Shown here in pieces: positions 52,029 through 55,217 of a stretch of 64,000 nucleotides of DNA. The position numbers and the translations under genes were made by a program. Source of the stretch: Candidatus Gastranaerophilales bacterium (GTDB taxonomy: Bacteria; Cyanobacteriota; Vampirovibrionia; Gastranaerophilales; CAJFVJ01); the NCBI GenBank assembly GCA_944323485.1, contig CALUSR010000003.1:201466-265465 (forward strand), written 5' to 3'. The notes under the pieces were generated by a model. That model worked only from the letters and a program-made list of their open reading frames with translations, was not told where the DNA came from and ran no database searches. The stretch's first letter is position 1; the number at the start of each line of letters is the position of its first letter.

Positions 52029-52076
52029 GTTTCAATGTCCTTTATTTCTAACATCGTGTAGTATAACGCAAAATAA

Positions 52077-52094
52077 TTGTGATTTATTTCACTA
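52077..52094. promoter_or_regulatory. Rex/CRP-type palindrome upstream of adhE
   Basis: TTGTGAtttattTCACta against the Rex consensus TTGTGAAnnnnTTCACAA (or CRP/FNR-type TGTGA-N6-TCACA). It lies 49 nt upstream of the adhE start. Confidence 0.45.
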
Positions 52095-52215
52095 TTCATA
52101 ATATAGCAAATGATAAAAATTTTTCAAGTGTATCTTTAACAATTATTTACAAAAATACTTCATCTAAACTAAGTCACTGCCCTGACTTTGCAAAATAATA
52201 TAGGCCGAATAAACG

Positions 52216-52243
52216 TTGACAGAAACAGCACAGATGTTATAAT
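52216..52243 (+). promoter_or_regulatory. candidate promoter of the hydS-like operon
   Basis: TTGACA, a 16-nt spacer, then TGtTATAAT. Confidence 0.45.
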
Positions 52244-52256
52244 TTTAGTTATATAA

Positions 52257-52274
52257 GTGTGAAAAATATCACGA
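52257..52274. promoter_or_regulatory. Rex/CRP-type palindrome just downstream of the hydS promoter -10
   Basis: gTGTGAAaaataTCACga, positioned as a repressor site. Confidence 0.45.
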
Positions 52275-52302
52275 TTTTAGGTAATGGATTAAAGGTATAA
52301 AA

Positions 52303-53994
52303 ATGGGAATAATAGAAATTATAAAATCCAACTGCAAGGATTGTTATAAATGTATAAAACACTGTCCTGTCAATGCAATCAGTTATTCAGACAACAGAGT
52401 CTGCATTGATTTTGACAAGTGTATTCTTGATGGAACATGCGTCAATGTCTGCCCGCAGAAGGCAAAAAAAGTAAAAACCTCTCTCCCTGAGCTGAAAGAA
52501 GCTTTAAAAAACGGAGAAAAAGTTATAGCAAGCATCGCTCCATCTTTTTATGCTTATTATGATTTTGACAAAACAGGCTGTATTTTATCATTTCTCAAAT
52601 CTCAAGGAATTTTCAGGGTAGAGCAGACCTCTCAATTTGCAAAAATAAATGCAATAAAACACTATGAATACATGAAGATTACCAAACTGCCTGTTATTTC
52701 AACGGCATGCCCGGTTATAGTGAAGCTGATAGAAAATTTCTATCCTGACTTGATAAACCTGCTCGCTCCGGTTGATAGCCCTATGGTGCTGCATGCAAAA
52801 GAAATAAAAGAAAACTATCCTGACTCAAAAGTAGTGTTCATAGGCCCATGCCTTGCAAAAAAGAATGAAGCGGAGGAAAACGGAATAGAGTATGCTCTGT
52901 CGTTCAACGAGCTAGAAGAGTGGATGAATGATGAGAACTTTTCTTTTGACAAAGTTACTCCGGAATTTTTCAATGACGATTATATCTACGAAACATCGAC
53001 ATATCCTCTTGAGGGTTCTCTTCTGACTCTGTGCGGTGCCGATAAAGAGTTATCAAAAGATGAGATGATTTCTCTGAGCGGATTAGAAGAAATTATGGAA
53101 TTTCTCAAGTACCTGAGAGGCAAATCAAATGTTCAATACAAAATGATTGAGATGTTAGCCTGCAAAAACGGTTGCATAAACGGGCCTCTCAAACCATCCA
53201 GTTATTGTGATGCAAATTATTTTGAGATAGAGGAAAAATTCAACAAAGAAATAAATATGTTTGAGAAAAAAGACCAAAAAATCCTCAACATAAACAAATA
53301 TCCTCTTAACAGAAGATTTGCCAATCATTACGAAGAAGAGATTGTGCCGACTGAGGAACAAATCAGAGCAACTCTGCGTTCAATGGAAAAATACACAAAA
53401 GAGGATGAAATTAACTGCGGAGCCTGCGGTTATAAGTCTTGCCGGGATAAAGCGATTGCTGTCATACAGGGGAAAGCTGAGAAAGAGATGTGCATTCCTT
53501 ATATGAAAAATCGTGCTGAAAAATTTTCGAGAATTTTGCTTGAGTCAAATCCAAACGGAGTAATTATTCTTGATGACAATCTGAAAATAACGGGCGTGAA
53601 TGATGCGCTTCTTGAGATGGCTGATAAAAAAGCCGATGAGCTTATTAATCAGAATATATCAGTATTGTTTGATGATTTGGAACCATTCCAGAATGTTTTG
53701 AAAAACAAAAAGCATGTCTACGAAGCAATAAGAGCATTCAACAATAAAAAGGTAAAGAAAATAATCTTCTCTATAAAAGACCTTGGAATAACGATTGTGT
53801 TTCTGGTTGATATTACGGAAGCTGATGTCCACAAACAGGCGCTTGAAAAAGTTAAGATGGAAACACTCGAAAAAGCGCAGGCCGTTTTGGATAAGCAGAT
53901 GAAAGTAACTCATGATGTAGCTGTACTCCTTGGTGAATCAACAGCTGAAACGGAGATGTTGTTAGGTAAACTGATAAATCTGATAAAACAATGA
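52303..53994 (+). CDS. sensory [FeFe]-hydrogenase-like protein (HydS-type: 2x[4Fe-4S], H-domain, Cx2Cx4Cx16C, PAS)
   Basis: Ferredoxin motifs CKDCYKCIKHCP and CILDGTCVNVCP. H-cluster motifs are variant: TACP (canonical TSCCP), GPCLAKKNE (MPCxxKxxE) and MLACKNGCINGP. Then CGACGYKSC-x16-C and a PAS-like C-terminus. Confidence 0.8.
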   Translation: MGIIEIIKSNCKDCYKCIKHCPVNAISYSDNRVCIDFDKCILDGTCVNVCPQKAKKVKTSLPELKEALKNGEKVIASIAPSFYAYYDFDKTGCILSFLKSQGIFRVEQTSQFAKINAIKHYEYMKITKLPVISTACPVIVKLIENFYPDLINLLAPVDSPMVLHAKEIKENYPDSKVVFIGPCLAKKNEAEENGIEYALSFNELEEWMNDENFSFDKVTPEFFNDDYIYETSTYPLEGSLLTLCGADKELSKDEMISLSGLEEIMEFLKYLRGKSNVQYKMIEMLACKNGCINGPLKPSSYCDANYFEIEEKFNKEINMFEKKDQKILNINKYPLNRRFANHYEEEIVPTEEQIRATLRSMEKYTKEDEINCGACGYKSCRDKAIAVIQGKAEKEMCIPYMKNRAEKFSRILLESNPNGVIILDDNLKITGVNDALLEMADKKADELINQNISVLFDDLEPFQNVLKNKKHVYEAIRAFNNKKVKKIIFSIKDLGITIVFLVDITEADVHKQALEKVKMETLEKAQAVLDKQMKVTHDVAVLLGESTAETEMLLGKLINLIKQ

Positions 53995-55217
53995 TTATAG
54001 ATTATTCGATACAACAGTTTAATAAACAGGGAAAAATTCTATGCGGCGACAGCATAGAAGTGTTTGAAGACGAAAACAGCAAGATATTTGTCCTCTCTGA
54101 CGGTTTAGGCAGCGGGGTGAAGGCGAATATTTCTTCGACTTATACAAAGATTATTCTCTCAAAATTTTTGATGAATAACATGCCTCTTGAGCAGAGCGTC
54201 AAAGTTCTGAAGAATATTCTTCCTACATGCCGGGAGAGGAAAATAGCTTACTCGACTTTTACGGTCATACAAATTTTCAATGACCTGAGAGTTAGGATTA
54301 TTGAATATGACAACCCGCTTGTGTTTTATTTCAATCATCTAAAGTTGAAAGAGTATGAAAGAAAGAAAATAGTCTGCGAAGGAGAAGATATTTTTATCAG
54401 TGATTTTCGCATAGAAAAAGATGACTTTCTTGTCCTTGCAAGTGATGGTTTGGTTCAGGCAGGAAGAGGAAAATTATTGAAAGACGGCTGGGGATGGGAT
54501 AGAGTTGCACTGTTTTTGGAACAGTCGCTCCAGATACATCCATCAAGCGAAAACATTTCCCATAGTCTTATTCACTATGCAAAATATATAGAAAACGGTT
54601 CTCTTTCTGATGATATCACAATCCTTGTCATAAATCCCCGTGACAGAGTTCAGCTGAATATAGCTATAGGACCTCCCAAAAGCGAAAGTGATGATAAGAA
54701 ATATGTAGAATCTTTCTGCGCATGCGACGGACAAAAAATTCTCTGCGGGGGAACAACGGCAAAAGTTTTCGCAAGAGTTCTAAACAAAAAACTCACAGTC
54801 GATCAAAATCAGTTTGTGAACGATATACCTGCAAAATCCCATCTTGACGGTTTTGATTTGGTAAGCGAAGGAGTTCTCACCCTCGAAAAAGTCGTAAAGT
54901 GGTTTGATTTTACGCATGAGTTTGATTTTCAGTATGAATATATCAAATCACTGCATGACATAAACAAAATCTACGGATTCAAAACACCATCGCAAAATAA
55001 CATAAAAGAAATCAAACTCGTAAAAAGAGAACCTGACAATCCTGTCGAAGAAATAATTTTTATGCTCAAAAAAGCCGATGATATAAACTTCTTTCTCGGG
55101 AAAGCATCAAATTATAACAACGGCAAATACAGCTCTGATGAGAAAAATGCCATAATCAATAAGCTGATTGAAAAACTCAAAGAGCAGAACAAAAATGTTA
55201 CCGTAACAGAGTTCTAA
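53991..55217 (+). CDS. PP2C/SpoIIE-family serine phosphatase with an unknown C-terminal domain
   Basis: GDSIEVFEDENSKIFVLSDGLGSGVKA and LVLASDGLVQAG motifs. It overlaps the hydS-like gene by 4 nt. Confidence 0.75.
   Translation: MIIDYSIQQFNKQGKILCGDSIEVFEDENSKIFVLSDGLGSGVKANISSTYTKIILSKFLMNNMPLEQSVKVLKNILPTCRERKIAYSTFTVIQIFNDLRVRIIEYDNPLVFYFNHLKLKEYERKKIVCEGEDIFISDFRIEKDDFLVLASDGLVQAGRGKLLKDGWGWDRVALFLEQSLQIHPSSENISHSLIHYAKYIENGSLSDDITILVINPRDRVQLNIAIGPPKSESDDKKYVESFCACDGQKILCGGTTAKVFARVLNKKLTVDQNQFVNDIPAKSHLDGFDLVSEGVLTLEKVVKWFDFTHEFDFQYEYIKSLHDINKIYGFKTPSQNNIKEIKLVKREPDNPVEEIIFMLKKADDINFFLGKASNYNNGKYSSDEKNAIINKLIEKLKEQNKNVTVTEF

Follow-up and report, generated by a model that had tools for sequence, protein, structure and literature searches.

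A putative sensory [FeFe]-hydrogenase and its partner phosphatase encoded beside adhE, with Rex-like boxes in the shared spacer, in a gut member of the Melainabacteria

Introduction

What is a hydrogenase-like gene doing beside, and divergent from, the gene for ethanol formation in a fermenting gut bacterium, and what might couple the two? The question is raised by a stretch of 64,000 nucleotides (nt) from a Candidatus Gastranaerophilales bacterium (contig CALUSR010000003.1; the whole stretch is called the window below), in which hydS, encoding a putative sensory [FeFe]-hydrogenase, is followed by a gene for a PP2C-type Ser/Thr phosphatase and faces adhE, encoding a bifunctional aldehyde/alcohol dehydrogenase, across a spacer of 274 bp. 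We conclude that hydS and the phosphatase gene form a two-gene operon which is the Melainabacteria counterpart of hfsB-hfsC. The best explanation of the whole, to which we give a probability of roughly 65%, is that this operon and the divergent adhE are under the control of Rex and that HydS reports H2 to the phosphatase.

HydS proteins identical or near-identical to that of the window belong to Candidatus Adamsella sp. (HIZ28630.1), placed in the Cyanobacteriota/Melainabacteria group at NCBI, and window positions 49251-64000 (14.75 kb) are 100% identical to the compared part of scaffold_10 of another assembly (ENA ERZ28614198; our locus L107). Melainabacteria are non-photosynthetic relatives of cyanobacteria, and those of the gut have been described as obligate fermenters yielding ethanol, lactate, formate and H2 (PMC3787301, PMC4040986). 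Our comparison covered 80 hydS loci, one genome per GTDB species, from Bacillota, Armatimonadota, Anaerolineae, Atribacterota, Syntrophia, Calditrichales and others, a scan from which Melainabacteria were absent; Melainabacteria relatives came from exact-protein look-ups, and the wider comparisons below cover 86 loci.

Results

Domain architecture and classification of HydS

The hydS gene (52303..53994, plus strand) encodes a protein of 563 amino acids (aa) in which Pfam recognized a Fer4 dicluster with two ferredoxin motifs at the N-terminus (aa 1-55), an H-domain (Fe_hyd_lg_C, aa 72-295, nt 52516-53187; E 7e-41), a C-terminal [4Fe-4S] motif (PF04060, aa 370-399, nt 53410-53499) and a PAS domain (PAS_9, aa 417-506, nt 53530-53820; 31.6 bits against a gathering cut-off of 27). 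A sequence-only reading of this DNA, made by a model, had already described an exact Cx2Cx4Cx16C motif and a PAS-like C-terminus, and both are borne out: the PF04060 region reads C372-x2-C375-x4-C380-x16-C397, and the PAS domain scores above its gathering threshold. Behind the PAS domain lies a helical segment (nt 53821-53991) which the homologue alignment shows to be strongly conserved as KQM-V-x-x-(V/I)A-x-LLGE. The full architecture is found in more than 3000 proteins and is that of the group C (M2f) putative sensory enzymes, defined by N-terminal FeS clusters, an atypical C-terminal [4Fe-4S] cluster and a PAS domain, whereas group D (M2e) is without the PAS domain (PMC13104023). HydDB subdivides group C by genetic partner, with C3 named “phosphatase-linked (putative)” (PMC5037454).

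Alignment with the catalytic enzyme CpI showed that, as had been read from the sequence, the four H-cluster Cys ligands are kept within non-canonical motifs. TSCCP of CpI is STACP in HydS, with Ala135 at the position of C299 and the ligand C300 kept as Cys136; MPC is GPC, with Gly181 at the position of M353 and the ligand C355 kept as Cys183; and EVMACxGGC is EMLACKNGC (EMLACKNGCINGP), with Leu285 at the position of M497 and the ligands C499 and C503 kept as Cys287 and Cys291. The top-scoring PDB chain for HydS, 6gly_A, is a CpI sequence reading TSACP, and the other CpI entries read TSCCP. All four ligands are invariant in the homologue alignment and in all 85 members of the HydS clade described below. 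Both ferredoxin motifs of the earlier description are present, with one refinement: the second (52420-52455, aa 40-51) reads C40-x2-D43-x2-C46-x3-C50-P, with Asp at the place of the expected second Cys. Many HydS homologues keep this Asp as CILDGxC and others have Cys there; such a site may hold an Asp-ligated or a [3Fe-4S] cluster.

Scores against the catalytic families fell far below their cut-offs, for group A (TIGR02512, 77 bits against 406; NF040763, 70 against 765) as well as for the NCBIfam model of group B1 (161 bits against 450), and the TSCCP, MPC and ExMxC motifs of catalytic group A enzymes are all changed. A neighbour-joining tree was built from 146 H-domains of the 86 hydS loci, with the neighbouring trimeric and HydA2-like enzymes as outgroups. 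All 85 phosphatase-linked HydS proteins, the window's included, formed one clade and the 61 catalytic neighbours fell outside it, so that the H-domain, whose phylogenetic placing the earlier reading had proposed as a check, does not group with the catalytic enzymes compared. The split was recovered in 100 of 100 bootstrap replicates of a 63-taxon subsample, including those replicates in which some distances lay beyond the range of the Kimura correction.

The residues at the three altered positions also differ between the two sets. At the C299 position the HydS clade has Cys in 38 members, Ala in 29 and Ser in 15, against Cys in 60 of the 61 catalytic neighbours; at the M353 position 81 of 85 have Gly, against Met in 34 and Gly in 25 of the neighbours; and at the M497 position Leu (29), Asn (23), Ser (17) and Met (13) occur, against Met in 59 of 61. 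The Ala/Gly/Leu set of the window protein is therefore typical of the HydS clade, and it fits the published pattern of TmHydS and other sensory enzymes, in which the C299 position is mostly Ala and the M353 position mostly Gly (A131 and, at the M497 position, S267 in TmHydS; PMC10055695). Because the architecture, the clade apart from catalytic enzymes, the second-sphere residues and the sub-cut-off group A and B1 scores agree, and given the genomic context, we classify the window protein as a group C, C3-type HydS, which upholds the sensory architecture proposed from the sequence.

The partner phosphatase

The phosphatase gene (53991..55217, plus strand; 408 aa) overlaps the stop codon of hydS by 4 nt (ATGA), exactly as had been noted, the two genes being translationally coupled, and in 77 of the 80 loci the gene next after hydS encodes a phosphatase N-terminal half; the Ser/Thr phosphatase linkage of C3 is thus present both in the window and across the family. 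hydS also flanks a divergent phosphatase member in Fusobacteriaceae. The PP2C/SpoIIE domain (aa 1-215, 53991..54635) matched PF07228 over aa 32-215 (E 1e-12; 48.8 bits against a cut-off of 25). In the AlphaFold2 (AF2) model of the protein, which has a predicted local distance difference test score (pLDDT) of 87, Foldseek matched this domain to SpoIIE (5mqh, E 1e-13), RsbX and RsbU, with 5mqh, 5ucg and 3w40 at E 1e-11 to 1e-13. Invariant in 42 homologues are D20, D37-G38, D152-G153 and D207-D208. Metal binding by such Asp residues is established for PPM phosphatases, and judged by these motifs the invariant Asp and Gly residues fit an active PPM enzyme.

The C-terminal half (aa 216-408, 54636..55217) had been left in the sequence-only reading as an unassigned region of ~200 aa. 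It is indeed without a Pfam match, in 20 of 20 members; it is not, however, a local oddity, being a conserved, family-specific domain of ~190 aa, present after hydS in 73 of the 80 loci and marked by the motifs GPP, CGGTTA, DLV(T/S)EG and G-x-A-x-N. Modelled alone with AF2 it gave a confident alpha/beta domain (pLDDT 86), for which Foldseek returned no match in the PDB below E 0.02 and a profile search of PDB sequences returned none. We also weighed whether the CGGTTA loop might be STAS-like or FtsZ-like, and gave up the idea as there was no fold match. Among 1.84 billion proteins the profile of this half found 1278 representative clusters, and in the 150 of these that were listed the domain is always C-terminal and the protein not longer than ~415 aa, which suggests that the domain occurs nowhere but at the end of phosphatases of this family. 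We conjecture that the helical segment behind the PAS domain of HydS docks on it.

STAS genes were found near hydS in one of the 86 loci. There (L087, 8590-9513) a response-regulator-STAS fusion gene lies directly 5' of the hydS operon, the sole STAS-type candidate substrate in the set. At its other end the window's phosphatase gene overlaps by 4 nt (55214-55217) a convergent bcp/peroxiredoxin gene (55214..55678, minus strand), and no terminator-like site lies between them.

Palindromic boxes at the two predicted transcription starts

The spacer between adhE and hydS (52029-52302, 274 bp) contains the two TGTGA-N6-TCAC palindromes, at 52077 and 52257, that the sequence-only reading had described. 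Outside the spacer the 64 kb contain no further copy of TGTGA-N6-TCAC, or even of the shorter GTGA-N6-TCAC, so that two of each are present against ~0.5 expected per window. The 18-mer Rex consensus, allowing up to 3 mismatches, was not enriched in the window (14 sites found against 9.7 expected), so that the core palindrome, where it lies and how well it is kept must carry the case for the boxes. Rfam found no riboswitch or small RNA in the spacer.

The hydS promoter (52216..52243, plus strand) is a 12/12 consensus match, with TTGACA (52216-21), a 16-nt spacing and an extended -10, TGtTATAAT, and the -10 is kept in the congeners L081 and L083. Box 2, GTGTGAAAAATATCACGA (52257-52274; 3 mismatches to the Rex consensus), starts 14 nt after this -10, at about +6 to +24, in agreement with the earlier description of a box just behind a consensus-like promoter. 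On the other side, the predicted adhE promoter (52127-52100, minus strand) has a -35 TTGAAA, 16 nt and an extended -10 TG-n-TATATT (10/12 with TG in the consensus scan), and both hexamers are kept in L081 and L083 in a three-species alignment. Box 1, TTGTGATTTATTTCACTA (52077-52094; 2 mismatches to TTGTGAA-N4-TTCACAA), lies ~5 nt after the adhE -10 and over the predicted adhE start; it is identical in L081 and L083, where HydS is 87% and 78% identical and adhE is likewise divergent. Upstream of the adhE -35, the same alignment shows a near-invariant block, TTTAACAATTATTTACAAAAATAC (52136..52159), between variable flanks, a possible second regulatory site. Since each box lies just downstream of a -10 hexamer, both would cover the predicted transcription start, which is the position of a repressor.

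Conservation of the box extends beyond the congeners. The core GTGA-N6-TCACG stands 5-19 nt after a -10-like hexamer in L081, L083, L084, L085 and L087, and of six related Melainabacteria upstream regions five have an exact hydS-proximal box while that of L086 has one core mismatch. The box is kept down to HydS identities of 42-49%, even without adhE: L084 (HydS 49% identical, no adhE) retains it, and L087 has two copies. In the Melainabacteria loci scanned (L081-L093) there were no other copies of the motif.

Rex in related hydS operons

Rex has an experimentally determined operator, TTGTGAA-W4-TTCACAA, and controls adhE and hydrogenase genes elsewhere (PMC2883068, PMC6391272, PMC5707799). 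In our set, three Melainabacteria relatives (L085, L086 and L087) have operons in the order small 2Fe-2S gene, hydS, phosphatase gene, hydC, hydB and hydA, and two of these operons, those of L085 and L086, end with rex, recognized by PF06971 and PF02629. Homologues of these rex products are widespread in Melainabacteria and Gastranaerophilales and are annotated as Rex there and in Candidatus Spyradomonas, and a gut representative aligned to solved Rex structures at E 1e-34 with the SQVRKD recognition helix kept. Overall, 20 of the 86 loci have a rex gene no more than 10 kb from hydS.

Sites within 2 mismatches of TTGT(G/T)AA-N4-TT(A/C)ACAA numbered 106 in the 1.32 Mb of the 86 hydS loci, and 29 of them fell within 400 bp upstream of hydS, a region making up 2.6% of the sequence, for an enrichment of ~10-fold; further sites precede the clustered adhE genes. 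Taken together, the placement at the start sites, the conservation in relatives and the presence of rex in the hydS operon of two of them strengthen the earlier claim that the boxes are close to the Rex operator. To our knowledge, no Rex regulon has been described in Melainabacteria.

A placement of rex ~26 kb from hydS, by way of two supposedly syntenic scaffolds, was rejected when the extended regions proved to share no DNA. The tetranucleotide correlation between the rex contigs and the window was 0.94, a value also obtained for congeners and not diagnostic, and the clusters of Rex homologues carry the names Spyradomonas and Gastranaerophilales, not Adamsella.

Recurrent linkage of hydS to adhE

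The adhE gene of the window (49398..52028, minus strand) encodes 876 aa with the Pfam domains Aldedh, Fe-ADH and ADH_Fe_C, and is the same divergent neighbour in the congeners L081 and L083 and in the same-species assemblies L094 and L107. Across the 86 loci, hydS clusters include adhE in no fewer than five layouts: as the divergent neighbour (the window, L081, L083); immediately behind the phosphatase gene (L038); after a HydA2-like gene (L025); after hydCBA (L002, L011); and upstream of hydS with a gene for an APH/RIO-like kinase between (L049, L073, L076, L079), adhE of L074 having the same position. A hydrogenase-family gene, either trimeric hydCBA or a HydA2/HfsD-like gene for ~475 aa, lies beside the hydS-phosphatase pair in 63 of the 86 loci.

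Deletion of hfsB raised the adhE transcript 2-3-fold and increased ethanol yield in several thermophiles, hfsB being a hydS homologue, hfsC the phosphatase gene and hfsD that of the catalytic hydrogenase (PMC5707799, PMC11837493); the accompanying change in AdhE activity was not wholly explained by transcript changes (PMC5707799). The link to ethanol fermentation proposed in the sequence-only reading fits both these genetics and the recurrent linkage.

The intervening kinase gene of L073 (8702-9448; 249 aa, PF01636) has homologues within 10 kb of hydS in L037, L040, L041, L049, L051, L058, L064, L076, L077 and L079, all Clostridia-type, and its product is a candidate for the kinase opposing the phosphatase. 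In sister Melainabacteria pfl, the gene for pyruvate formate-lyase, lies directly after the phosphatase gene (L083, 3821-5551; L084, 11095-13368), and there another fermentation branch point adjoins the hydS-phosphatase module.

Other features of the window

The last 143 nt of an argD-like aminotransferase gene (48377-48519) are duplicated at 97% identity 670 bp downstream (49047-49189), in the tail-to-tail spacer of argD and adhE; the ~530 bp between the copies hold a 110-aa open reading frame (ORF; 48747..49079), and the repeat looks like the scar left by an insertion at the argD 3' end. At ~9040-17500, a tRNA gene (9055-9127) abuts a large serine recombinase gene (9042..10589), followed by small ORFs without families, a DUF4236 protein and a repressor with a CI/LexA-like helix-turn-helix and an S24 peptidase domain (15240..16196), which together are probably an integrated mobile element or prophage remnant. 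Positions 32688-37374 encode the alpha and beta subunits of oxaloacetate decarboxylase and a phosphoenolpyruvate carboxykinase-like protein, matching the Na+-pumping oxaloacetate decarboxylase proposed for Melainabacteria (PMC3787301). Between typA/bipA and a TolC-like gene lies an ORF of 445 aa (57637-58974) without a Pfam family, conserved in the same-species assemblies. A 975-aa ORF of the window belongs to a gene for 1066 aa that extends past the window's edge.

Discussion

Proposed mechanism

The reading that we prefer would run as follows. At a low NADH/NAD+ ratio Rex would occupy both operators, and it would be released as NADH accumulates, allowing joint expression of adhE and the sensor module. 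HydS would bind H2 at a slow H-cluster, and a conformational or redox signal would then pass through the C-terminal [4Fe-4S] cluster, the PAS domain and the helical segment to the phosphatase, possibly with the help of the latter's C-terminal domain. The phosphatase would in turn alter the phosphorylation state of a target phosphoprotein, and the net result would be a shift of electron disposal between H2 evolution and ethanol as the partial pressure of H2 rises.

Several observations weigh against this proposal. The 64-kb window holds no rex, as judged by tblastn with a Melainabacteria Rex and by Pfam scans of 40 ORFs, and among the listed matches to the Rex of L086 (down to 52% identity) none lies on a contig with an Adamsella HydS cluster. 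The core TGTGA-N6-TCAC is also the core of CRP-family operators. The same window searches (tblastn and Pfam scans) found no kinase, no STAS substrate or partner, no anti-sigma kinase or other anti-sigma protein, no sigma factor and no catalytic hydrogenase, whether hydCBA or HydA2/HfsD-like, which confirms the absences listed in the sequence-only reading and leaves the pair here without a partner-switching context. On the side of the sensor, data on TamHydS speak against a redox role of the C-terminal cluster (PMC13104023), and H2 signalling by any HydS in vivo is still a hypothesis in the field. Finally, within Melainabacteria adjacency to adhE is confined to the Adamsella lineage, with pfl or hydCBA at that place in L084-L087.

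Alternative explanations

The palindromes might instead be operators of a CRP/FNR-family regulator and report cAMP, oxygen or another signal in place of NADH. Their exact core suits CRP as well as Rex, and rex could be tied to the window's genome neither by tblastn of the 64 kb nor by the attempted joining of contigs. Yet the boxes lie at or just after the predicted starts, where a repressor would sit and not a CRP activator at -41.5 or -61.5; no copy has the full TCACA, all of them reading TCACG or TCACT; and rex lies inside the same operon in L085 and L086. Nor is there a CRP-like gene in the window by Pfam scans or by phmmer, in which Rex, CRP and FNR queries (approximate sequences) all failed to match any window ORF, and we hold this explanation to be decidedly improbable. 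That adhE adjacency is a neutral rearrangement, the pair regulating a distant gene such as a hydrogenase operon and sharing only Rex with adhE, draws on the variable neighbour in Melainabacteria (adhE in the window, L081 and L083; pfl in L083 and L084; hydCBA in L085-L087). Against it, adhE recurs in at least five architectures and several lineages, where by our estimate a given single-copy gene would be expected within 20 kb in ~1% of loci, and deletion of hfsB alters adhE expression (PMC5707799); neutrality of the adjacency is in our judgement unlikely.

It is equally unlikely, we think, that HydS is not an H2 sensor at all but a slow catalytic hydrogenase or a general sensor of redox state or the ferredoxin pool acting through its FeS clusters and PAS domain. 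Slow turnover of H2 is indeed known from TmHydS and TamHydS (PMC10055695, PMC13104023), a response to redox potential has been suggested for the PAS domain of HfsB (PMC11837493), and no separate catalytic hydrogenase is seen near hydS in the window. On the other hand, HydS has other residues in place of the proton-relay Cys and the two Met, the HydS clade is separate from the catalytic enzymes, the PAS domain and the phosphatase partner are obligatory, and in the 63 loci with a hydrogenase-family gene alongside, it is that gene which encodes the enzyme, with hydS as an additional copy. A more far-reaching possibility, which we put forward as quite doubtful, is that the Adamsella pair has been freed from any catalytic hydrogenase and rewired to adhE, so as to sense the ambient H2 of the gut by itself, the phosphatase acting on AdhE or its dedicated regulator by way of its C-terminal domain, which would either dock the HydS helices or bind a substrate or ligand. 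It is hinted at by the APH/RIO-like kinase genes beside hydS in 11 Firmicutes loci, placed between hydS and adhE wherever the contig reveals the order, whose products would oppose the phosphatase, and by the part of the AdhE activity change that transcripts leave over (PMC5707799); if true, ethanol fermentation would be under an H2-gated post-translational switch.

Comparison with known systems

The closest system is HfsB-HfsC of the hfsABCD cluster in Thermoanaerobacterium saccharolyticum and T. thermosaccharolyticum, where a PAS-bearing [FeFe]-hydrogenase-like protein is likewise followed by a Ser phosphatase and tied genetically to adhE expression and ethanol yield (PMC5707799, PMC11837493). 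The window differs from it in lacking both a small 2Fe-2S gene like hfsA upstream and a hydrogenase gene of the HfsD/HydA2 type downstream, in an adhE that is adjacent and divergent, and in its host, a Gram-negative-type gut member of the Melainabacteria. The hydS of Ruminococcus albus, so far as it is described in work on the thermophiles, is a further counterpart (via PMC5707799, PMC11837493). With HydDB C3 the locus shares co-transcription with a Ser/Thr phosphatase and proposed H2 sensing (PMC5037454), its membership following from architecture, context and the local tree. TmHydS of Thermotoga maritima, the group C/M2f reference, has the same N-terminal FeS clusters, H-domain, C-terminal [4Fe-4S] cluster and PAS domain, with Ala at C299 and a small residue at M353 (PMC10055695, PMC13104023), but has Ser where the window protein has Leu at M497 and stands in a different genomic context. 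Group D putative sensors share the atypical C-terminal [4Fe-4S] cluster (PMC13104023) but lack the PAS domain present in the window protein.

The Rex regulons of Gram-positive bacteria and Thermotogae (S. aureus, Caldicellulosiruptor bescii, Thermoanaerobacter) resemble the proposed one in the TTGTGAA-W4-TTCACAA operator, the adhE and hydrogenase targets and the relief by NADH (PMC2883068, PMC6391272, PMC5707799), whereas in the boxes of the window nothing but the GTGA-N6-TCAC core is retained, with G or T on its flanks. The HoxBC-HoxJ-HoxA [NiFe] sensor of Ralstonia eutropha is likewise described as a crippled hydrogenase feeding a phosphorylation switch (PMC5707799), but it belongs to an unrelated hydrogenase class, and its output is a histidine kinase and response regulator, not a PP2C phosphatase.

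Significance

The module belongs to a class already described (C3; HfsBC; HydS of R. albus), and its ties to Rex and adhE have been published for Firmicutes. Because the arrangement is already HydDB C3, the locus is less novel than the sequence-only reading implied; what is new is modest, namely the lineage, the bare two-gene form set against adhE with paired operators, the comparative support for the adhE link and the database-orphan phosphatase domain. The known module is extended to a new phylum-level lineage, and the classification is unchanged. The at least five arrangements of adhE with hydS and the phosphatase gene back the hfsB-adhE link that has been used to engineer ethanol-producing thermophiles. 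For the host group a syntrophic way of life, based on fermentation that yields H2, has been proposed (PMC3787301). For the study of signalling by putative sensory [FeFe]-hydrogenases this locus offers a minimal case, with a sensor, a phosphatase and one obvious metabolic neighbour, adhE.

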